Below the pieces are notes generated by a model, which was given only the letters and a program-made list of their open reading frames with translations, did no database searches and was not told where the DNA came from. This document shows positions 1,215-13,469 of a stretch of 64,000 bases of DNA, piece after piece (position 1 is the stretch's first letter; every line of letters begins with the position of its first letter). The stretch spans positions 21,801 through 85,800 of the forward strand of contig OMXS01000018.1 of NCBI GenBank assembly GCA_900315095.1. The letters run 5' to 3'. Source of the stretch: an uncultured Prevotellaceae bacterium (GTDB lineage Bacteria > Bacteroidota > Bacteroidia > Bacteroidales > Bacteroidaceae). Made by a program: the position numbers and the translations under genes.

Positions 1215-2000
1215 TCACTCGCCTTCAGGTCGGGGGCGGAAGATGTCATCAAGATGTTTCTTTGAGTAATAGGTCCTCCCATATTCTCGCTTGGTGGGAA
1301 TATGACGGCGGTAGGCTTGGGTGCACAAGGATTCCTTGGTCGTGGAATAGAGGGATTCTGCCTCATCCGTTGTTAGCCACTCTGTCAGGGCTTCAATCTC
1401 GGCAGAAACTCCGAAGAGCGCATCCATGTGCTTGCGGCTATAATAGTTCTTGCCAGCAATCTTGCAAATGGGTACTTGGTTATTCTTGGCAGAAGTGTAG
1501 AGCCATGAACGCTTTACTTTGTAAATTGCCATAACATCCTCGCCTGAGATGTATTCAAGAGGCTCGATGTTCTGAACAGAATCCTCTTTTCTCGCTGGCT
1601 TACTTGAAGCACGTCTTTTCAACGAAAGGGAAGAAAGAATCATAGGCTTGTATGTTGGCAATACTCTATGATAAGGATTGCCAGCAAGCATCTTCTCGAT
1701 GTCAGCCTTGCGGATGAAAGCCATACGGTTGCTGATTCGTGATGCAGGGAGTTTACCCTCGTTTACCAACTTGTAAACGTACTGACGGGAGCATCCCATG
1801 AGGATTGCAGCCTTGGAGAATGTAAGATACTCCTGGCTGGCGATGTCTATAACTGGCTGGACTGCCTTCAAAAAGTCCTGCTGTTTCTTCTTGCGCTGAG
1901 CCTTTGCCGCCTCGGCACAGTGTTCTGAACAATACCTCTGCGAGCCGCTGTTACAAGTGAACTCCTTGCCGCAGAAGGCGCATTTTCTTGTCTTTCTCAT
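1215..2000 (-). CDS. Excisionase-like protein: N-terminal CxxC..CxxxC zinc finger plus three HTH_17 (MerR-like) repeats, probably C-terminally truncated
   Basis: CAFCGKEF..YCSEHC; HTH repeats YLTFSKAAILMGCSRQYVYKLV, YISGEDVMAIYKVKRSWLY and WLTTDEAESLYSTTKESL. Ends abruptly at RPRPEGE. Confidence 0.8.
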   Translation of the reverse strand: MRKTRKCAFCGKEFTCNSGSQRYCSEHCAEAAKAQRKKKQQDFLKAVQPVIDIASQEYLTFSKAAILMGCSRQYVYKLVNEGKLPASRISNRMAFIRKADIEKMLAGNPYHRVLPTYKPMILSSLSLKRRASSKPARKEDSVQNIEPLEYISGEDVMAIYKVKRSWLYTSAKNNQVPICKIAGKNYYSRKHMDALFGVSAEIEALTEWLTTDEAESLYSTTKESLCTQAYRRHIPTKREYGRTYYSKKHLDDIFRPRPEGE

Positions 2001-2339
2001 TTGACTCCTTTTAATGTGGTTTTACAATCAATTTCTTGCAAACCGCCACGGAGTGAACTTTCGTCAATCATTGACACCTATTGTCAAATTATTCCACGAT
2101 GTCACGTACTTCAAATGAGGTCACTTCCTTGTTCTTTTCCCTCTCGTTCATCAGTCAACCTTTGTACACACTTGTAAACCCTTGTCAACCCTGTCCACGA
2201 GATGACAAAATAAAAGCCCTCAAAATTCTCCGCGGTAGAAATGCGTTGCAAAGGTAAGCGGATTTTTGAGAACCACCAAAAAGCAAGTCTGAAGTGTTAA
2301 AATCTTTCATTGTTTATAGTTGTTTAGAGGTCTCTAAAT
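1215..2339 (-). mobile_element. Remnant end of a Bacteroidales integrative/mobilizable element (excisionase gene, its promoter region and the element end)
   Basis: Excisionase-like gene with -7 promoter (caaaggta 2249-2256 on +). Abrupt junction with the LRR gene at ~2339/2340. No integrase in the window. Confidence 0.55.
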
Positions 2340-2747
2340 ACAACCTGCAAATGCGAAAGTGCCTATAGATGTTACCGAATTAGGAATTGTTATTGACGTT
2401 AGACCATTACACAAAAAGAAAGCACTACTGCCAATTTCTGTAACTGTATTAGGTATAGTTACGGATGATACACCACTCCAGTAAAATGCTTCACTGCAAA
2501 TTTTAGTTACTGTATATGTTCGGTTTTTATAAATAACCTCAGACGGAATAACAACCGAACCCTGATAACCTGAATTAGAGTCACTTTTGGGTGCTACTGC
2601 GAGTTCGGTTCCATCATTTATATATATATAATAGATGGTTACACCTTCAGAATTTTCAACTGCGATGTCATAGGCGTAAGTTTTTGCTCCTGTAAGGATC
2701 AGAAGGAGCAATAAGAGCATATAACGATAATAATTGTTTGTTTTCAT
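2334..2747 (-). pseudogene. BspA-type leucine-rich-repeat surface protein, truncated after ~3 repeats
   Basis: Signal peptide, YDIAVENSEGVTIYY N-terminal domain and TIPNSVTSIG-AF-GC repeats. The frame stops mid-repeat (FAGC-I-stop), with no C-terminal domain. Confidence 0.8.
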
Positions 2748-2798
2748 GATGTTTTGATGTTTATAGTTAGTGTTTACGTTATTTCAAAGGTATACGAA

Positions 2799-2962
2799 AA
2801 AAAACGTGGACTGTTTACTAAGTCTACGTTCTATCAGGTATCGCCAAACACCATAGCAGCCTAAACTTGTAAAAGCCCACGCCATCTGGCGTGAACCATT
2901 TACTTTATACCATAGGCATATTTTTTAAAAGTTAATACTTACGAATGCAAAGATAAACATTT
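2799..2962 (-). promoter_or_regulatory. Promoter + MPMV uORF + attenuator-like leader, copy A
   Basis: -7 box TATCTTTG (2948-2955) and ATGCCTATGGTATAA (2905-2919). A 64-nt block (2799-2862) ending in a hairpin plus T-tract is 63/64 identical to 10424-10487. Confidence 0.75.
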
Positions 2963-3088
2963 TATTTTATAAGATGTGGTTTTGAAGAAGTTTTTTTCAA
3001 AGAAGAGGAAAAGAAGTACATGATAAGGGGGATTTCTTCCTCTTAGTCGCTCAACCCTTTAGGGGTGCTTGTTCCCGAAGGGTCTCAA

Positions 3089-3189
3089 GAAGGGGGAGTT
3101 GAGGGGGATTGTCTTGTATAGGTCTACTTTATAATGAAACACTAGCTTTACAATCCCCGCCTAGCCTCCCCTTACTAAGGGGCGGAAAT
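3089..3189. repeat. REPIN-like inverted repeat doublet 1
   Basis: Partial left arm AAGGGGGAGTTGAGGGGGATTGT, 37-nt spacer, and 40-nt right arm ACAATCCCCGCCTAGCCTCCCCTTACTAAGGGGCGGAAAT. Confidence 0.85.
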
Positions 3190-3235
3190 GTTGCACCGGT
3201 TAATCATAAGAGATTGATGCAACATCTCTGTACAA

Positions 3236-3274
3236 TTCTCCCCTTTACTAGGGGGCGGAAATACCGCAATCCCC
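3236..3274. repeat. Degenerate REP copy overlapping the DUF559 stop codon
   Basis: TTCTCCCCTTTACTAGGGGGCGGAAATACCGCAATCCCC contains the CCCYTTACTARGGGGCGGAAAT motif. Confidence 0.7.
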
Positions 3275-3676
3275 TATATACATGTCTTTAACATATCCTT
3301 TTATTTGTTGCGGATTCTCTCTAAACCACTTTATACTCTCTGTAATAACCTCAATATTATTGAATACGACATTATTACTAAACCTCACTACGGTGATACC
3401 CTCTTCATTTATGTATTTAGTTCGTTCCATGTCAGCATTATATTGCTCGGAATTGTCATGGGGTTCACCGTCAAGTTCTATGCAGAGCTTTATTTCAGGA
3501 CAGTAAAAGTCCATAATATATGGTCCTATGCTATGTTGCCTGCGGAATCTCAATCCCTCTATTTGTTTGTTTTTCAACACTTTCCATAATGTACTTTCTG
3601 CTGCGGTAGAGTTGTTCCTCAGACTATTTCTTTTGATTTTGGCATCTGCTAGTGTGAAAACTCTTTCTTTTGACAT
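3248..3676 (-). CDS. DUF559 family (Vsr/PD-(D/E)xK-like) endonuclease
   Basis: LRNNSTAAESTLW..FRRQHSIGPYIMDFYC..CIELDGEPH..D.ERT....G..V.RF.N family signature. Confidence 0.9.
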   Translation of the reverse strand: MSKERVFTLADAKIKRNSLRNNSTAAESTLWKVLKNKQIEGLRFRRQHSIGPYIMDFYCPEIKLCIELDGEPHDNSEQYNADMERTKYINEEGITVVRFSNNVVFNNIEVITESIKWFRENPQQIKGYVKDMYIGDCGISAP

Positions 3677-3709: not shown

Positions 3710-3817
3710 ATTTCTCCCTCTTAGTAAGGGGGAGTTGAGGGGGATTGTATTCTGCAAGAATCAGGGACATGTGTTTTACAATCCCCGCCTAACCTCCCCT
3801 TACTAAGGGGCGGAAAT
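3710..3817. repeat. REPIN-like inverted repeat doublet 2
   Basis: Left arm 3710-3748 and right arm 3778-3817 are inverted repeats. The right arm is 39/40 identical to 3150-3189. Confidence 0.9.
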
Positions 3818-3871
3818 GTTCCTGACTTGGTTTTGCTGCTTGGCTTGTCCAAGAACTACTAGACGGAAATA

Positions 3872-6106
3872 TTACACTCTCGTCACTTGCTTCACTCCCT
3901 TCACTGTCCTCAGCTTCTTTATCAATGCTTCCAGACGCTGGGTGTCTTCTACATTTACTGAGAGGGTGCCACTGAAGAGGCCGTCATTACTGTCGATGTT
4001 TATGCTGCGCATCATTATCTTTTCCTCTTTGGAGATGATGCTGGTGATGTTGTTCACTATGCCGATGTCATCATTGCCTATGATACGCAGGGAGGTGCTG
4101 TACTGTGAAGTGCCTTTTCCACTCCATCTTGCCCTCACTATCCTGTATCCAAACCTACGACGCATCTCTGGAGCATTAGGGCAGTCAGTACGATGAATCT
4201 TGATGCCTCCATTCACTCCTACAAAGCCAAACACTGAGTCTCCATAGATAGGGTGGCAGCAACGTGCCAGTTGATAGTCAAGTCCCTTGATGTTCTTGTC
4301 TATCACCAGCTCATCGTCACTTACATGTTCACTCAGTTCATTGGGGTTGTCATAGCTGAACTCCTCTGCACTTCGTGCCTGCATGGCAGTCTGAGTCTGC
4401 AGTTCAGGATTCTTCAGAAGGTTGTATTTCTCTATGATGAGGTTGAGGTCGAGAGTGCCATCAGCTATTTGATGATAGAAGTCTGTGGTCTGCTTGAATC
4501 CCATTTTCTTGATGAGTTGGTTCATCACAGCCTCGTCCATCTCTATCTTCTTGTTCTTCATCCTTCGCTCCATCATCTCCTTTGCCATCAGGCTCTCCTT
4601 CACCTGAGTCTCCTTGAGTGCAAAGCGAATCTTGCTCTTGGCATGACTTGTCTTTACATAGGTGAGCCAGTCACGCTTGGGTTTCTGGTTGTTCGAGGTG
4701 ATAATCTCTATCTGGTCTCCACTCTGCAGTACATGGCGGAAGTTCACTATCTTGTTGTTTATCTTTGCACCAGTACACCTGTTGCCCACATTGGTGTGTA
4801 TCATATATGCAAAGTCGAGCACTGTGGCACCCTTTGGAAGCTTGAAGAGGTCGCCCTTTGGAGAGAAGACATACACCTCATCCTCATAGAGATTCATTCG
4901 GAACTCATCCATCACCTGCATGTCATCACTGTTCTCTATGGCATTGCGGATGTTCTTGAGCCACTCATCCAGTCCACTCTCTCCCTTCACTCCCTTGTAA
5001 CGCCAGTGGGCAGCCACACCTTTCTCTGCCACTTCATCCATTCTCTCAGTGCGTATCTGCACCTCAACCCACTTTCCTTCAGGACCAAGCACCGTGATGT
5101 GCAGACTCTCATAGCCATTGGTCTTTGGCACAGAGAGCCAGTCACGCAGTCTCTTGGGGTTGGGCTGATACATGTCTGTGATGATTGAGAACACCTGCCA
5201 GCACTGTGTTTTCTCCAGGGCATGGAACTTCTTCTCGTCATCCAGTTCAGGAACATCAAGAATGATACGTATTGCAAAGAGGTCATAGATGCCGTTGAAG
5301 CCACACTGTTGTTTCTTCATCTTCTGCCAAATGCTGTGAATGCTCTTGGTGCGGCCCTTCATGTGGTATTTGAACCCTGCAGCGTTAAGTTTCTCTGCAA
5401 TAGGACCTATGAACCTCTCTATATAGGCATCACGGCTCTTCTTTGTGGCATTCAGGTTGTCCTTAATCATGTAGTAGGCATCATGCTCAAGGTATTTCAG
5501 CGAGAGGTCTTCCAGTTCACTCTTCAGCTTGTACAGTCCCAGCTTATGAGCCAGAGGTGCATAGAGATAGCTTGCCTCTTCAGATACACGATGCTTTGCT
5601 TCAATGTTCTCAGCATCACGTATCTGTCTCATGAGGTTCACTCGCTCAGCAATCATAATCAGGATAACCCTCATGTCCTCAGCAAAGGAGAGCAGCAGGT
5701 TACGGAAGTTCTCACTCTCTATGACAGGGTTTTTCTTGTATAGTGTCTGTATCCTCACCAGTCCGTTGATGATGTTTGCCACACCCTCTCCGAAGCTCTC
5801 CTTCACAGCCTCCTTGTCGAACACCTCATTATTATATGAGCAGTAGAGCAGGGTGGCTATGATGGCATCCTTGCCCAGACCTATCTGTTCTGTGCCTAAG
5901 AGTGCTGTCTGCAGACTCTTCACTATGGGGTTCAGCCCGAAGGCATCTCTCTGCAGTTCATCATTGGCATAGGCCTCGTTGAGCCTTCTTATGATGTGTC
6001 TCTTCTCATCCTTGCTCAGCGAGGGACTCATCACTCGTGAGAGACTTCTTACCAGTGCATAAGCCTCATGACGCTCTTCAACAGTGAATATGAAACTCTT
6101 GGTCAT
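3872..6106 (-). CDS. relA: Long RelA/SpoT homolog, (p)ppGpp synthetase with degenerate HD domain, TGS and ACT domains
   Basis: GRTKSIHSIWQKM, YDLFAIRII, PKTNGYESLH, EVQIRT, AAHWRYK, TGS (GATVLDFAY) and C-terminal ACT domain. Confidence 0.9.
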   Translation of the reverse strand: MTKSFIFTVEERHEAYALVRSLSRVMSPSLSKDEKRHIIRRLNEAYANDELQRDAFGLNPIVKSLQTALLGTEQIGLGKDAIIATLLYCSYNNEVFDKEAVKESFGEGVANIINGLVRIQTLYKKNPVIESENFRNLLLSFAEDMRVILIMIAERVNLMRQIRDAENIEAKHRVSEEASYLYAPLAHKLGLYKLKSELEDLSLKYLEHDAYYMIKDNLNATKKSRDAYIERFIGPIAEKLNAAGFKYHMKGRTKSIHSIWQKMKKQQCGFNGIYDLFAIRIILDVPELDDEKKFHALEKTQCWQVFSIITDMYQPNPKRLRDWLSVPKTNGYESLHITVLGPEGKWVEVQIRTERMDEVAEKGVAAHWRYKGVKGESGLDEWLKNIRNAIENSDDMQVMDEFRMNLYEDEVYVFSPKGDLFKLPKGATVLDFAYMIHTNVGNRCTGAKINNKIVNFRHVLQSGDQIEIITSNNQKPKRDWLTYVKTSHAKSKIRFALKETQVKESLMAKEMMERRMKNKKIEMDEAVMNQLIKKMGFKQTTDFYHQIADGTLDLNLIIEKYNLLKNPELQTQTAMQARSAEEFSYDNPNELSEHVSDDELVIDKNIKGLDYQLARCCHPIYGDSVFGFVGVNGGIKIHRTDCPNAPEMRRRFGYRIVRARWSGKGTSQYSTSLRIIGNDDIGIVNNITSIISKEEKIMMRSINIDSNDGLFSGTLSVNVEDTQRLEALIKKLRTVKGVKQVTRV

Positions 6107-6359: not shown

Positions 6360-6418
6360 CAAAGTTATGAAATTTTCCTTCATTTCTTTCTTAATTCAGA
6401 AAAAAGTAACTATATTTG
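6360..6418. promoter_or_regulatory. Divergent Bacteroidetes promoters for relA and the DUF4301 gene
   Basis: -7 boxes TAACTTTG on - (6360-6367) and TATATTTG on + (6411-6418). Confidence 0.65.
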
Positions 6419-6457
6419 CGTGAGTTTTTCAACGTAACTACTAAAAATACCATAATT

Positions 6458-7975
6458 ATGCTATCAAATTCAGACCTTAAACAACTAGCTCAGAAAGGAA
6501 TAACACCTGAGCAAATCGAGAATCAACTGCAAGAGTTTAAAACTGGTTTCCCATTCCTTCGACTGGAGGGACCTGCTGCTGTGGGCAATGGCATCGTGGC
6601 TCCTACAGAGGCTGAGTGTCAGGACTATGTTAAGACATGGAACGACTACAAGGCTGAGGGAAAGAAGATTGTGAAGTTTGTTCCTGCCAGTGGAGCAGCA
6701 AGCCGTATGTTCAAGGACATGTTTGCATTTGTTGATGCTCCCTATGATGTGCCTACAACAGACTTCGAGAAGGAGTATTTCAACAACATTGAGAAGTTCG
6801 CCTTCTACGGTGCTCTGGATGAGGTGTGCAAGAAGAACAATGGCAAGGGAATCAAGGAACTCATTGCTGAGGGCAACTATAAGGCTGTGGCAAAGAACAT
6901 GCTCGACAAGAGTGGACTCAACTATGGTCAACTGCCTAAGGGACTTCTCCTGTTCCACAACTATCCTGAAGGACCACGCACTCCAATGGAGGAACATCTC
7001 GTAGAGGGTGCTCTCTATGCTGAGAGTGGGGCAGAGGCTAATGTTCACTTCACTGTGAGTCATGAACACCTGCAGCTCTTCGAGCAGAAAGTGGCTGACA
7101 AACAGGCTCAGTATGCTCAGAAGTATGGAATAAAGTACAACATCAGCTTCTCTGAGCAGAAACCAAGCACAGACACTGTGGCTGCCAACCCAGACAACAC
7201 TCCTTTCCGTAATGAGGATGGCTCACTATTGTTCCGTCCAGGTGGACATGGAGCACTCATCGAGAACCTCAATGAAATCTCTGCCGATGTAGTGTTCATC
7301 AAGAACATTGACAATGTGGTGCCAGACCGTCTGAAGCCTGAGACAGTGACATACAAACAGGTAATCGCAGGTATCTTGGTTGCTCTTCAGAAGAAAGTGT
7401 TCCACTATCTTGAGGTGCTTGAGAGCGGTGCCTACAGTCATGAGACTCTTGAGGAGATCATCCGCTTTGTAAAGAATGACCTCTGCTGCAAGAAGAATGA
7501 CATCAAGGAACTTGAAGATGCCGAGCTGGTAATCTTCCTCAAGGAGAAACTCAACCGTCCTATCCGTGTTTGTGGAGTGGTTAAGAATGTGGGTGAACCA
7601 GGTGGTGGACCATTCCTCACATACAACCAGGATGGCACTGTCAGCCTGCAGATACTTGAGAGCAGTCAGATAGACAAGAACAATGAGGAGTACATGCGCA
7701 TGTTCAAAGAGGGAACACACTTCAACCCCGTTGACCTCGTTTGTGCCATCAAGGACTACAAGGGAAAGCCATTCAACCTGCCTGAGTATGTCGACAAGAC
7801 CACAGGCTTCATCAGCAGCAAGAGTAAGAACGGCAAGGAACTCAAGGCCCTTGAGCTGCCAGGACTGTGGAATGGTGCTATGAGCAACTGGAACACCATC
7901 TTCGTAGAGGTTCCCCTTGGCACCTTCAACCCCGTGAAGACAGTCAATGACCTGCTTCGTGAACAGCATCAGTAA
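6458..7975 (+). CDS. DUF4301 family protein (UDP-sugar pyrophosphorylase-like motifs)
   Basis: KFVPASGAASRMFK, FRPGGHGALIENL, FIKNIDNV, GEPGGGPF, THFNPVDLVC, KALELPGLWNGAM. Start moved to ATG 6458, downstream of the promoter. Confidence 0.9.
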   Translation: MLSNSDLKQLAQKGITPEQIENQLQEFKTGFPFLRLEGPAAVGNGIVAPTEAECQDYVKTWNDYKAEGKKIVKFVPASGAASRMFKDMFAFVDAPYDVPTTDFEKEYFNNIEKFAFYGALDEVCKKNNGKGIKELIAEGNYKAVAKNMLDKSGLNYGQLPKGLLLFHNYPEGPRTPMEEHLVEGALYAESGAEANVHFTVSHEHLQLFEQKVADKQAQYAQKYGIKYNISFSEQKPSTDTVAANPDNTPFRNEDGSLLFRPGGHGALIENLNEISADVVFIKNIDNVVPDRLKPETVTYKQVIAGILVALQKKVFHYLEVLESGAYSHETLEEIIRFVKNDLCCKKNDIKELEDAELVIFLKEKLNRPIRVCGVVKNVGEPGGGPFLTYNQDGTVSLQILESSQIDKNNEEYMRMFKEGTHFNPVDLVCAIKDYKGKPFNLPEYVDKTTGFISSKSKNGKELKALELPGLWNGAMSNWNTIFVEVPLGTFNPVKTVNDLLREQHQ

Positions 7976-9199: not shown

Positions 9200-9643
9200 T
9201 TAAGGTGTCACCTCATCATCACCCTTGTCCACATCGTTCTTAGGAAGTTCCTTGACTGTGGAACCTGAGGTTAAGACATTCCGGCGCTGGCCATTCTTGT
9301 CAACAGTCACAACGGGTTGGAAATTGACGTGCAATCCCTTCACATTCTTTGCTGCAGAAAACTCCTTGGCGGTGGGTGCTGGAGATGTGGAGAGCCCCAT
9401 CTTGAATGTACCCAGTCCGTCAATTCTTACAGCATAAGACTTCTGAATGAAATCCTTGATTACCTCAACCATCTCAGTAAGCACTGCTAGAGCATCAGCC
9501 TTCTTTGCTGTGGTGTTGTCCTGAATGCGTTGAGCAATCTCATCAAGATTGATGGTGTCAATCATCTTGGCACGTGCGTACCACTCTCCCTTGTGCGTGG
9601 AGTTGACCCTGTTGTCCTGAACTAATCTGTAAAATACTGCCAT
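9200..9643 (-). CDS. HU-family histone-like DNA-binding protein (Bacteroidetes expanded type)
   Basis: GEWYARA....TINLDEIAQRIQDNTT.K.AD..AVL....EV......V.IDGLGTFK.G signature. Confidence 0.9.
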   Translation of the reverse strand: MAVFYRLVQDNRVNSTHKGEWYARAKMIDTINLDEIAQRIQDNTTAKKADALAVLTEMVEVIKDFIQKSYAVRIDGLGTFKMGLSTSPAPTAKEFSAAKNVKGLHVNFQPVVTVDKNGQRRNVLTSGSTVKELPKNDVDKGDDEVTP

Positions 9644-10060: not shown

Positions 10061-10190
10061 CCAAGTCAGGAATATTTCCGCCTCCTAGTAGGGGGAGGTC
10101 AGGAGGGGATTGTGATGATAGTGTTTCATGATAGAGTAGACTTACACGAAACAATCCCCCTCAACTCCCCCTTGCCAAAGGGGAGAAAAT
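10061..10190. repeat. REPIN-like inverted repeat doublet 3 (inverted relative to doublets 1 and 2)
   Basis: Arms 10074-10113 and 10151-10190. The first arm is 35/40 identical to 3778-3817, the spacer is 28/37 to the doublet-1 spacer, and flank 10061-10072 is the reverse complement of 3819-3830. Confidence 0.9.
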
Positions 10191-10282
10191 CTCTTATCAT
10201 GTATATTTTTTTCATTCCTCTGGAGCTTCAGTTGCTTTCCATATTGAAAATTTCTCCTCAAAAGAGTACTTCATATAAAAAT

Positions 10283-10487
10283 AAATGTTTATCTTTGCAT
10301 TCGTAAGTATTAACTTTAAAACCGTATGCCTATGGTATAACGAAATAATTACATAAGGAAGAAGCGTTTGCTTTTTGTTCTTGTTCTATCGAAATCGCCA
10401 ATTTCAACAAAGCAGCAAGACTAAGGCTGCTATGGTGTTTGGCGATACCTGATAGAACGTAGACTTAGTAAACAGTCCGCGTTTTTT
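10283..10487 (+). promoter_or_regulatory. Promoter + MPMV uORF + attenuator-like leader, copy B
   Basis: 35/35 promoter block shared with 2928-2962 and uORF at 10326-10340. 10383-10401 is complementary to 10439-10458. A hairpin plus T-tract ends at 10487. Confidence 0.75.
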
Positions 10488-10516
10488 GTATTTTATATTT
10501 TTTTAAATTTTAAATT

Positions 10517-10762
10517 ATGGATAATAATAACAACACCAAGTTCTCATTCAATTCGGATGATATTGTAGCAAGCATCCTATCTGGTATCGGCGTTCTTGGA
10601 ACACTCGCGGGACTATTTATTGTGATTGTCTCACTCTTTGGCAGAAATACACATTACGCATCGGGATTTTCTGTGCTTTTTAGCTCCCTTTTCATGCTCG
10701 GATTCTCAATCTTAGTCAGGGCTGCTGTTAAGTATTTAAATCAGAGAGAAGAGCAAAAATAG
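10517..10762 (+). CDS. Small two-TM membrane protein
   Basis: Two long hydrophobic segments. A-rich translation initiation region downstream of the leader. Confidence 0.75.
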   Translation: MDNNNNTKFSFNSDDIVASILSGIGVLGTLAGLFIVIVSLFGRNTHYASGFSVLFSSLFMLGFSILVRAAVKYLNQREEQK

Positions 10763-10774
10763 TGAATATGTATT

Positions 10775-11227
10775 ATGAATAATATTATTAAGAAAAGTCT
10801 TTTATTGATAGCTACCATTCTACATCTTGCATCATGTTCAGATAAAACACCTGAACAACCAAGAAATATTAAAGTAGAAACGTGGGCAGATAAGGCAGAA
10901 GCTTTTTTTCCTCAGGCACTTGACGAGGCTGTTCCTCATGACTGGCAGACACAACCTTATATCACCGATGTCGATATTTGGTGTAACAATGACAGTACAA
11001 AGACATACGTCAAAAGATTTCATATGAAATATTACAACCAATTCGGTGGCATGTCTAATGGACGTTTTTTCTATGTGTACGTATGGGATAAAGATAAGGG
11101 AGTCATAAGGTACAATATAAGTGAGAATGGAAGTTCGTATTTACTGAGAGATGGCAATGATGATGAATGGGCGTATCAGGACAAGGCAGTTACATATTGC
11201 ATTGTTTTCGGCGGCTCATATAATTAA
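10775..11227 (+). CDS. Hypothetical lipoprotein
   Basis: Signal peptide II MNNIIKKSLLLIATILHLASC-SDK. Confidence 0.75.
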   Translation: MNNIIKKSLLLIATILHLASCSDKTPEQPRNIKVETWADKAEAFFPQALDEAVPHDWQTQPYITDVDIWCNNDSTKTYVKRFHMKYYNQFGGMSNGRFFYVYVWDKDKGVIRYNISENGSSYLLRDGNDDEWAYQDKAVTYCIVFGGSYN

Positions 11228-11546: not shown

Positions 11547-13295
11547 TTACAGTCCGAGGTCTTTCTTTATTAACTCAATCTTCTCAGCTGCTGCATTTGA
11601 GCAACGCTCATAGCATCCTGCACACTTCATTGTGTTGTCCTTAACCTCTGTGTAGAACTTGATCTTTGGCTCTGTTCCTGATGGACGTACACTAATCTTG
11701 GTGCCATCCTCACAGAACCACTGCAGTACGTTGCTGGTGTCTGGCATGTCAATCTTTGTAACAGTACCATCAGCATTCTTCTGCTCAAGTGTCTTGTAGT
11801 CCTTCCACAGGCACACTTTAGAGCCGCCAAGCTCCTTAGGAGGATTGTTGCGGAAGTTCTCCATCATGGCCTTAATCTCATCAGCACCGCTCTTTCCTGG
11901 CTTTACTACGTTGATAGTCACCTCTTTAGAGAAGCCGTACTCCTGATAGATGTTCATCAGAAGGTCGTAGAGAGTCATGCCATTGTCCTTTGCCCATGCT
12001 GCAATCTCACAGATGAGACAGATGCTGGCAGGTGAATCCTTGTCACGTACCTTGTCAAATGGCAGGAATCCGAAGCTTTCCTCACCACCACCGATGTATT
12101 TCTTCACACCTTCATTGACGCGGATTTCATTGGCAATCCACTTGAATCCTGTGTAGCAGTCCTTGAGTTCTACACCGTTCTTGTCGGCAATCTTCTTGAT
12201 TACCTCTGTTGTAACGATGGTCTTCACAAGGAACTCGTTGCCCTTGAGTTGTCCCAGTTTCTTCTTGTTTGCTATGATATACCAGCAGAACATCATGCAG
12301 GTCTGGTTGCCATTGAGGATTTCCCACTCACCCTTGTCATTACGGCATACAATAGCCAGACGGTCAGCATCAGGGTCACTAGCAATCACAAGGTCTGCAT
12401 TGAGACGTGTTCCAAGCTTCATACCCAGTGTCATTGCCTCTGCATTCTCTGGGTTTGGAGAAACAACTGTCGGGAAGTTACCATCGATTACCATCTGCTC
12501 TGGCACCACATGGATGTTCTGGAATCCCCATGAACGCAGTGCCTCAGGGATAATCACACGACCTGTTCCATGCATTGGAGAGTAAACAATGTTGAGGTCT
12601 TTGTGGCGAAGAATCACATCCTGGTCAACCATTGCTTCCTTAACAGCCTGCAGGTAGTCCCAGTCCATCTCACCACCGATAATCTCGATGAGTTCCTTGT
12701 TAGGCTCAAACTTAACATCTTCAATCTTCACCTTGTTCACTTCATCGATGATGCCCTTGTCATGTGGAGCCAGAACCTGTGCTCCATCATCCCAGTAAGC
12801 CTTGTATCCATTGTACTCCTTCGGGTTGTGAGAAGCTGTAACATTTACTCCAGCCTGAGCTCCTAACTGCCTGATAGCGAATGAGATTTCAGGTGTTGGA
12901 CGAAGACTTTCAAAGAGATAAGCCTTGATGCCATTGGCAGAGAAGATGTTAGCCACAGTCTCAGCAAACTGACGTCCATGATTACGACAGTCATGACCTA
13001 CAACCACAGAGAGGTCTTTCTTTCCCGGGAAAGCCTTCAGTATATAGTTGGCAAAGCCCTGAGTGGCCATACCTACGATATAAACATTCATGCGGTTGGT
13101 GCCTGCTCCCATGATACCACGAAGTCCACCAGTGCCAAACTCAAGTGAGCGATAGAAACTGTCTATGAGTTCTGACTTGTCAGGATTGTCCAGCATAGCC
13201 TGAACCTCCTTGCGTGTTTCCTCGTCGAATGAAGGAGAAAGCCACTGCTTGGCAGCCTGTTCACACTGAGCGATAAGTTCTTTGTTATTTTCCAT
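11547..13295 (-). CDS. pgm: Phosphoglucomutase / phospho-sugar mutase
   Basis: FGTGGLRG, TASHNP phosphoserine loop, DPDADR, GEESFG, RPSGTEPKIK. Start at MENNK. Confidence 0.92.
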   Translation of the reverse strand: MENNKELIAQCEQAAKQWLSPSFDEETRKEVQAMLDNPDKSELIDSFYRSLEFGTGGLRGIMGAGTNRMNVYIVGMATQGFANYILKAFPGKKDLSVVVGHDCRNHGRQFAETVANIFSANGIKAYLFESLRPTPEISFAIRQLGAQAGVNVTASHNPKEYNGYKAYWDDGAQVLAPHDKGIIDEVNKVKIEDVKFEPNKELIEIIGGEMDWDYLQAVKEAMVDQDVILRHKDLNIVYSPMHGTGRVIIPEALRSWGFQNIHVVPEQMVIDGNFPTVVSPNPENAEAMTLGMKLGTRLNADLVIASDPDADRLAIVCRNDKGEWEILNGNQTCMMFCWYIIANKKKLGQLKGNEFLVKTIVTTEVIKKIADKNGVELKDCYTGFKWIANEIRVNEGVKKYIGGGEESFGFLPFDKVRDKDSPASICLICEIAAWAKDNGMTLYDLLMNIYQEYGFSKEVTINVVKPGKSGADEIKAMMENFRNNPPKELGGSKVCLWKDYKTLEQKNADGTVTKIDMPDTSNVLQWFCEDGTKISVRPSGTEPKIKFYTEVKDNTMKCAGCYERCSNAAAEKIELIKKDLGL

Positions 13296-13469
13296 ACTAT
13301 TAATTTGTTTATGATTAGTGTTTAATGTTCTAAATGCAAAGATAATCATAATTTTTAAATTATAGCAGAACATGTGCCGATTTTTTATTTTTTAATATAT
13401 TATTTACAAATCTATGTTGCTCAAACGAACTAAAAATGCTACCTTTGCGGACAAAATAGACAATCAATA

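Follow-up and report, generated by a model that had tools for sequence, protein, structure and literature searches.

Classical four-segment transcription attenuators are either ribosome-mediated, as in the trp, his and pheA leaders with their pairings 1:2, 2:3 and 3:4, or protein-mediated with an anti-antiterminator, as in the B. subtilis pyr leader and its regulator PyrR. Among the RNAs of Bacteroidota, FopS, which consists of a single-stranded 5' seed (there termed R1) and, behind it, a terminator, targets susC mRNAs in trans, and a FopS sequence has been noted in a phage (PMC11697453). Here we analyse two copies, A and B, of a leader element in a 64,000-nucleotide (nt) stretch of an uncultured Prevotellaceae bacterium (contig OMXS01000018.1; this whole stretch is called the window, and coordinates are counted from its first letter). 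Copies A and B are members of a large uncatalogued leader RNA family of Bacteroidota and their phages. The family probably consists of cis-acting 5' leaders that operate as two-state transcription attenuators.

The leader resembles the classical attenuators in having four segments (S1-S4) with mutually exclusive pairings, in which 3:4 abuts a U-tract, 2:3 precludes 3:4 and 1:2 precludes 2:3, and in sitting 5' of the presumed regulated gene behind its own promoter. The mutually exclusive helices (1:2 plus 3:4 versus 2:3) have each been kept in evolution, and the terminator hairpin is followed by a U-tract and lies upstream of an open reading frame (ORF) with almost no intervening promoter. Unlike in the classical systems, S1 and S4 of the leader also pair, making the antiterminated form a continuous rod of ~45 base pairs (bp). 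The terminator hairpin is very long and carries an invariant apex hairpin, the cargo is heterogeneous and accessory instead of a biosynthetic operon, and many copies occur per genome and also in phages. In contrast to the trp-type attenuators, no leader peptide lies over segment 1 (a mini-ORF has 0-2 sense codons). Transcription-terminating riboswitches likewise have a structured, covarying leader with a terminator as the expression platform; the present leader differs from them in having no Rfam 15 match and no coherent metabolic theme downstream, and its most conserved nucleotides are in a helix or alternative hairpin rather than in an obvious ligand pocket. FopS and GibS are also multicopy promoter-to-terminator RNA units of Bacteroidota that can be phage-borne, whereas this leader is a long two-state rod at a fixed position before ORFs. 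The GibS model (RF04182) scored 18.1 bits on the locus against its gathering score of 115. The kind of element, a terminator/antiterminator leader, is known; the family, its rod/twin-hairpin design and its cargo spectrum are new.

Copies A and B belong to a large leader RNA family

An earlier sequence-only reading of the window had described a portable unit, present twice before unrelated genes, with a shared promoter block, mini-ORF and 3' block. Direct reading and alignment bear out these shared parts. A 35-nt block, AAATGTTTATCTTTGCATTCGTAAGTATTAACTTT, is identical (35/35) in the two copies and contains the Bacteroidetes -7 box TAnnTTTG; ATGCCTATGGTATAA is common to both; and the 3' blocks agree at 64 of 65 positions (BLAST) and end in a T-tract. 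CTTATCATGTA and an inverted-repeat element lie 5' of both copies. The features of the two copies, and two further members from the same genome, are as follows.

10061-10490 (+): copy B, whole shared stretch (reading and alignment)
10290-10297 (+): copy B promoter -7 box TATCTTTG (TAnnTTTG), within the 35/35 block at 10283-10317
10326-10340 (+): ATGCCTATGGTATAA of copy B, with the mini-ORF AUG-GUA-UAA nested at 10332-10340
10359-10489 (+): copy B leader RNA, 98.6 bits (covariance model)
10362-10373 (+): copy B hairpin P0
10383-10391/10451-10458 (+): copy B rod helix P1
10394-10401/10439-10446 (+): copy B rod helix P2
10412-10416/10426-10430 (+): copy B rod helix P3
10435-10450 (+): copy B invariant block GGTGTTTGGCGATACC; in the rod, 3' strand of P2; in the terminator fold, apex hairpin GGUGUU/GAUACC
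10457-10487 (+): copy B weak local hairpin (-5.5 kcal/mol by folding) and U6 tract, the latter being the T-tract at 10482-10487
~2797-3200 (-): copy A, whole shared stretch (reading and alignment)
2948-2955 (-): copy A promoter -7 box TATCTTTG (direct reading, alignment)
2905-2919 (-): ATGCCTATGGTATAA of copy A, with the mini-ORF AUG-GUA-UAA at 2905-2913
2797-2965 (-): copy A leader remnant, 77.7 bits (covariance model)
2875-2897 (-): copy A apical hairpin a:a', retained
2837-2852 (-): copy A invariant block, retained
2805-2812 (-): copy A segment b, retained
2797-2804 (-): copy A U8 tract, retained, the T-tract that ends the 3' block
2805-2883 (-): copy A hairpin H3 (3' half self-folded), -29 to -32 kcal/mol, directly abutting the U8 tract; the minimum free energy structure of copy A and its terminator state
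2785-2792 (-): promoter-like TACCTTTG between the copy A terminator and the copy A ORF
contig C54, 1928-2106: further member in the same genome, full-length, divergent
contig C45, 239-413: further member in the same genome, full-length, divergent

The 64-nt 3' block gave only two BLAST matches in its own genome. BLAST of the 3' block against related genomes returned a longer RNA that holds both the pieces found only in copy A and those found only in copy B. A covariance model (R1; 176 positions, 51 base pairs) was built from eight of these longer sequences. In the genus it found members in 176 of 301 genomes, nine copies being the most in any one genome; the complete genomes of this sample divide 74 to 66 into those with and those without the RNA. 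In a phylum-wide sample it matched 30 of 401 genomes (15 of 180 genera). Four R1 sites were found in the genome of the window, namely copies A and B and the two divergent full-length members on other contigs, one of which precedes an MmeI-family type IIL restriction-modification gene and the other a leucine-rich repeat (LRR)-like signal-peptide protein at a contig end. Clearly, then, the element extends beyond the two copies first noticed, with four in its own genome and hundreds elsewhere by the covariance model.

Named genomes were scanned for the invariant 16-mer GGTGTTTGGCGATACC, and R1 was then applied to confirm members. Within Bacteroidales, across which this 16-nt block is invariant, members were identified in Prevotella/Prevotellaceae, Paraprevotella, Bacteroides, Alistipes, Rikenella, Odoribacter and Butyricimonas, as well as in Barnesiella, Coprobacter, Parabacteroides, Dysgonomonas, Muribaculaceae and Paludibacteraceae. 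Members beyond the order came from Tenacibaculum, Maribellus, one Chitinophagales metagenome-assembled genome (MAG) and one Cloacimonadales MAG, and R1 matched Flavobacteriales-, Marinilabiliales- and Chitinophagales-type genomes. The leader measures ~175 nt and has a 5' extension of ~55 nt. In several genomes two leaders lie 1.7-3 kb apart on one contig as tandem leader-plus-gene cassettes (for example G097:C34:12127-14073, G324:C5:19049-21627, G185:C32:28594-31693 and G042:C15).

Rfam 15 at the gathering score had no match in the window. On ten loci with full-length members it returned no leader family, only unrelated tRNA and thiamine pyrophosphate (TPP) matches, and a permissive scan of the locus gave chance-level matches only (mir-H1 on the repetitive extragenic palindromic (REP) element, and the GibS match mentioned above). 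Literature searches yielded no description of this leader RNA.

The exact 16-mer GGTGTTTGGCGATACC also occurs in more than 111 IMG/VR contigs, and R1 confirmed 63 of the 80 loci examined there. Leaders on phage contigs precede moron-like genes that encode an Mrr-type type IV restriction enzyme, HSDR_N-domain nuclease-like proteins, lipoproteins and small membrane proteins. Many related viral contigs have, behind the leader, the gene of either a 360-aa protein with an HSDR_N domain or an Mrr-like type IV restriction enzyme of 285 aa (PADLOC PDC-S02); such genes resemble prophage morons or defence genes under leader control. No match to a full-length member emerged when the GenBank phage and PLSDB plasmid collections were searched with blastn, and no transposition signature was found for the leader. 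The portability claimed at the outset is supported in the sense that a self-contained promoter-leader-terminator unit is placed before unrelated, mostly envelope-related genes and also before phage and prophage accessory genes.

The full-length leader can fold into a covarying rod

In the first of two folds, the 5' half of the leader pairs with its 3' half in five helices (P1-P5), with the small hairpin P0 in front. On 41 sequences, 92.7% of the cells were paired in this rod, compared with 35-44% in slid controls. Compensatory double changes were present in 38 of the 51 pairs, a level reached by none of 500 shuffles; because the family members are phylogenetically related, such shuffle counts are not probabilities. 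The P1 and P3 sequences are unrelated between copies, even within one genome. P2 (AUCGCCAAA/UUUGGCGAU) is invariant in Bacteroidales and covaries in distant members (UCGGCAAA/UUUGCCGA, CUGGUA/UACCAG and UUGGCC/GGCCAA). The pairing of 10383-10401 with 10439-10458 that had been spotted in copy B corresponds to P1 plus P2 of this covarying rod. Every full-length member that was folded has the rod as its minimum free energy structure. The pairs of the rod include 187 G.U and 36 A.C, and this large excess of G.U argues for folding of the sense-strand RNA and against a symmetric palindrome of the DNA.

These data bear directly on the notion that the element is a selfish, DNA-level palindromic repeat of the kind of miniature inverted-repeat transposable elements (MITEs), enterobacterial repetitive intergenic consensus (ERIC) sequences or Correia elements, whose hairpins matter as DNA or not at all and whose effects on genes are a by-product. 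Such a view would fit a multicopy element that is palindromic overall, is found in many phage contigs and adjoins a true REP-like repeat in this window; deletions of exactly one hairpin, seen in some assemblies, are also expected from slippage on DNA hairpins. However, copies in one genome differ in helix sequence while pairing is kept by compensatory changes, and the G.U excess is on the sense strand. The leader also keeps one orientation and a fixed distance to the next ORF, with a promoter upstream, and is conserved phylum-wide instead of being near-identical within a genome. Dispersed copies for which gene orientation is irrelevant, the hallmark of REP, REPIN and MITE elements, characterise the inverted repeat upstream and not the leader itself. 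A selfish repeat is thus a highly improbable explanation.

An extension of the rod over the U-tract (AGACA/UGUCU) is conserved in the Prevotella-type subgroup and is weakly member-specific (z = -2.2; 180 of 10,000 permutations). Tentatively, the rod can extend across the U-tract by this AGACA:UGUCU pairing in read-through transcripts. Two other candidate features were rejected by inspection. The GAAA/ACC internal loop does not qualify as a kink-turn (K-turn), as the G.A pairs needed are not conserved, and the conserved 5' ACAUAU motif does not pair consistently with the UAUAUG internal loop across members.

A second covarying fold has a candidate terminator at the U-tract

In almost all members, segment b, the 9-10 nt directly 5' of the U-tract, is complementary to the apical hairpin's 3' strand, a', and the two segments vary in concert: AGUCCGCGC pairs with GCGCGGACU, CGGCUCACG with CGUGAGCCG, GGAACACCC with GGGUGUUCC, and GAGUUCGUGC with GCACGAGCUC. 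For permutation, segment b was defined as the 10 nt abutting the T-tract. Duplexes of a member's own a' and b had a mean energy of -12.6 kcal/mol, compared with -10.0 for cross pairs, and none of 10,000 permutations went that low. Among the 19 members whose a' diverges, the energy sums were -251 versus -147, again reached by 0 of 10,000 permutations. The a':b helix beats any local hairpin in 59 of 62 members, and outside Prevotella there is usually no local hairpin before the U-tract.

When a':b was forced and the remainder refolded, every member tried adopted a fold of two hairpins, H5 and H3. H5 is the self-folded 5' half with GAAAUCGCCAAAUUU in its loop; it is transcribed first and has an energy of -21 to -27 kcal/mol alone. 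H3 is the self-folded 3' half, with ~25-30 bp that end directly at the U-tract and an apex hairpin, GGUGUU-UGGC-GAUACC, formed by the invariant block. On a 70-sequence alignment fitted to the rod, the two-hairpin fold was 77.3% paired versus 39-57% in slid controls, a percentage that is inflated relative to those controls by the derivation of the structure from one member. In the same alignment the a':b helix was 91% and the H3 apex hairpin 93.8% paired, and double changes occurred in 46 of the 56 pairs of the fold. The covariation in homologues that had been suggested as a check is hence present for both folds, which indicates that both are under selection. An H-type pseudoknot in which the rod and a':b coexist was also considered and is ruled out by geometry, reasoned and not computed, as a linker of 0-2 nt would have to span a ~24-bp helix.

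A two-state attenuator model

We propose that a Bacteroidetes-type promoter drives a transcript of the four pairing segments. In State 1 (read-through), S2:S3 and S1:S4 would join into the one long irregular rod P1-P5, with the 8-10 nt before the U-tract (segment b) left free or weakly paired. In State 2 (termination), S1:S2 would form H5, exposing GAAAUCGCCAAAUUU in the loop, and S3:S4 would form H3 under its GGUGUU-UGGC-GAUACC apex; the base of H3, a':b, would lie directly against the U-tract as an intrinsic terminator, and transcription would end at this U-tract. The topology would be that of an anti-antiterminator, antiterminator and terminator. H5 would probably be the first to form during transcription, and the balance may be tipped by some factor, candidates being an H5-stabilising protein, RNA or ligand, translation of the mini-ORF, and the speed of transcription. 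Our preferred guess is an H5-stabilising factor, which would favour termination. The sequence-only reading had suspected an attenuator switch in copy B. Its alternative pairings beside the terminator are there, but the competitor is not P1/P2 alone; in the present model the whole molecule isomerises and the segment before the U-tract pairs with a'.

Several observations weigh against the two-state model, besides the relatedness of the members and the single-member origin of the State 2 structure already described. Premature termination, the transcription start and read-through are predicted from sequence. In each of the full-length members folded, the two-hairpin state lies ~10 kcal/mol above the rod in free energy, so the outcome would have to be kinetic or factor-dependent. 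The mini-ORF stops at least 20 nt upstream of P0/S1 and is missing from Flavobacteria-type members, in which the promoter is directly before P0. The cargo genes are without a common metabolic theme, which counts against a conventional metabolite riboswitch.

The stability of the rod is equally what would be expected if the rod were itself the functional form and acted post-transcriptionally, being cut by RNase III or bound by a protein and thereby setting the stability or translation of the cargo mRNA. The mini-ORF might then deliver ribosomes past the rod, and the U-tract would not be a regulated terminator. The possible extension over the U-tract (AGACA:UGUCU, with the weak z = -2.2 given above) agrees with this, as does the end of the conserved mini-ORF ~10-12 nt before the base of the extended rod. 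Such a function, which is compatible with attenuation, leaves unexplained both the b/a' covariation and the covarying, conserved H3 apex hairpin, and Flavobacteria-type members have no mini-ORF; as a replacement for the attenuator model we find it quite unlikely.

A more far-reaching form of the two-state model, which we regard as doubtful, would make the family an RNA switch of a new class, confined to Bacteroidota and their phages. Twin hairpins would interconvert with the rod, the conversion being started by kissing of the two invariant, complementary apices AUCGCCAAA (H5 loop) and UUUGGCGAU (H3 apex). Within a genome this apex handle does not vary between copies, unlike the helices that flank it, which would allow a single global factor, or terminated leaders acting in trans, to co-regulate surface-protein, membrane and restriction-modification/defence genes including prophage morons. 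Recurrent excision of one or the other hairpin would in addition lock loci ON or OFF.

If the attenuator model is true, one RNA device would control a large part of the variable cell surface, including BspA-type adhesin-like proteins as well as lipoproteins and small membrane proteins, together with several restriction-modification/defence genes, in hosts that are among the most abundant gut and rumen bacteria, and the same device would be carried by their phages. A large family with strong covariation for two folds would also offer a tractable model for co-transcriptional RNA switching, and a lead to a missing regulator of surface variation in Bacteroidota.

Genomic position, promoter and cargo of the leader

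An ORF follows the leader 3' in the same orientation in 103 loci, and the distance from U-tract to ORF clusters at 41-69 nt. The ORF starts 30 nt after the T-tract in copy B and 50 nt after it in copy A. The motif TAnnTTTG is found within 130 nt upstream of 68 of 105 members, and in only two of 92 spacers between U-tract and ORF, copy A being one of those two. With a promoter in the spacer so rare, transcription of the downstream gene would depend on which fold wins. The cargo genes in the window are these.

10517-10762 (+): copy B cargo, 81-aa small membrane protein, no Pfam match
10775-11227 (+): copy B cargo, 150-aa protein, no Pfam match
2334-2747 (-): copy A cargo, 137-aa BspA-type LRR fragment

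The copy A protein matches positions 1-56 of the 127-position LRR_5 profile, and the match ends at the C-terminus of the protein. Pfam assigned 17 of 93 downstream proteins to LRR_5 (BspA-type). The remaining cargo is scattered over dockerin, MORN, BACON, outer-membrane protein (OMP) beta-barrel, TM2, DNA methylases, MmeI and DUF1896, with many lipoproteins lacking a match. A signal-peptide-like N-terminus was present in 64 of 97 downstream proteins, a raw count by a crude heuristic. The genes behind the leader, for surface proteins, membrane proteins and DNA defence, are probably gated by it.

The same positional data speak to whether the element is instead the gene of a trans-acting small RNA (sRNA), a multicopy paralogous family like FopS in which the invariant loop is the seed and the downstream genes are neighbours or receive incidental read-through. 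An sRNA gene would be expected to have its own promoter and U-tract terminator, both of which are found, and the 2-9 copies per genome would suit it. In the terminated form, the 16-nt block that is invariant across the order would lie open in the loop of H5 and at the apex of H3, and Bacteroides does have multicopy sRNA families (PMC11697453). The orientation and spacing to the downstream ORF are nevertheless fixed, and promoter motifs occupy just the two spacers noted above. Two covarying folds centred on the terminator are needed by a cis switch and not by an sRNA, and the FopS/GibS architecture differs, in line with the low GibS score. We therefore judge an sRNA gene unlikely, although besides its cis role a terminated leader may also act in trans. 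The suggested analogy to antisense-controlled leaders of the phage c4/CI type gained no support from the data: Rfam had no c4-type match in the window, and no antisense partner turned up, no systematic search for one having been made.

The mini-ORF is an accessory module

An AUG located at -24 to -46 from P0 and followed by 0-2 sense codons and a stop is present in 61 of 105 members, compared with 11.9 +/- 3.3 in shuffles. An in-frame stop falls within four codons in 80 of 92 such AUGs, versus 15 and 22 in the other two frames. What is kept is only this nested AUG, 0-2 codons and stop; the tetrapeptide Met-Pro-Met-Val, read in both window copies from the sequence, is not conserved. The location of the mini-ORF at least 20 nt upstream of segment 1 and its absence from Flavobacteria-type members indicate that it is not a trp-type leader peptide. 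The mini-ORF is an accessory module.

Apparent internal deletions distinguish the window copies from full-length leaders

At each of the two loci, other assemblies have a full-length leader of 174 nt that scores 130-135 bits, with hardly any difference between the two leaders. The assemblies in question are rumen-type metagenome scaffolds that encode identical 81-aa and 137-aa proteins in matching neighbourhoods, and one of the scaffolds contains both loci. Relative to the 174-nt leader, copy B is without 43 nt, exactly the apical P4+P5 hairpin including a' (junction ~10423/10424). Copy A is without 82 nt, exactly S0 plus H5 (S0, P0 and the 5' strands of P1-P3), with the junction directly 3' of the mini-ORF (~2904). 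The different middle of the two copies, between mini-ORF and 3' block, thus reflects the lack, in this assembly, of a different part of one full-length leader in each and not sequence divergence. Further variants in other assemblies share one breakpoint inside the leader (gacta^aagtaaatgg); they comprise a deletion of the copy A type found at the B locus, one further deletion at the A locus, an N gap and contigs starting inside the leader. The variants and deletions represent either recurrent natural excision of one hairpin by slippage or a systematic assembly weakness.

If the deletions are real, the model predicts opposite outcomes for the two copies. Copy A has lost H5, so only the terminator hairpin is possible and the copy would be locked OFF. 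In copy B the apical hairpin is gone together with a'; the strong terminator cannot form, and the copy would be locked ON or leaky. Copy A stands before a truncated BspA gene and has the promoter-like motif 3' of its terminator. Natural deletion variants of this kind, if real, would be ready-made locked-ON and locked-OFF mutants.

A dispersed REP-like repeat and the neighbouring genes

The inverted-repeat element 5' of both copies occurs three times in the window.

10070-10203: REP/REPIN-like inverted-repeat element 5' of copy B
3090-3192: REP/REPIN-like element 5' of copy A
3711-3821: third copy in the window

Its unit, TTTCCGCC..TAGTAGGGGGAGG..GGGGATTGT, has 19 matches in the genome, three of them in the window, as inverted doublets and 40-nt singlets. 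A repeat search with seed 9 missed the inverted repeat because its arms differ by one base. Other strains lack the element 5' of the same leader, and their sequence resembles that of the window only from TTATCTTTG, the -7 box, onwards. The REP-like element is a dispersed repeat in its own right and not a component of the leader unit, to which the sequence-only reading had assigned it.

Some strains have a BT4734-like_N/VapE-like primase gene, a mobile-element hallmark, directly upstream of the copy B leader. Judged from these sequence comparisons, the promoter-proximal edge may be an insertion or recombination boundary. Behind copy A, the truncated BspA fragment is followed by a 261-aa HTH_17 (excisionase-type helix-turn-helix) protein at 1215-2000 (-), which suggests a mobile-element remnant. 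The other neighbours are ordinary, and include the following.

3248-3676 (-): DUF559 endonuclease-like protein
3872-6106 (-): RelA/SpoT
6416-7975 (+): DUF4301
9200-9643 (-): HU-HIG DNA-binding protein
11547-13373 (-): phosphoglucomutase-family protein

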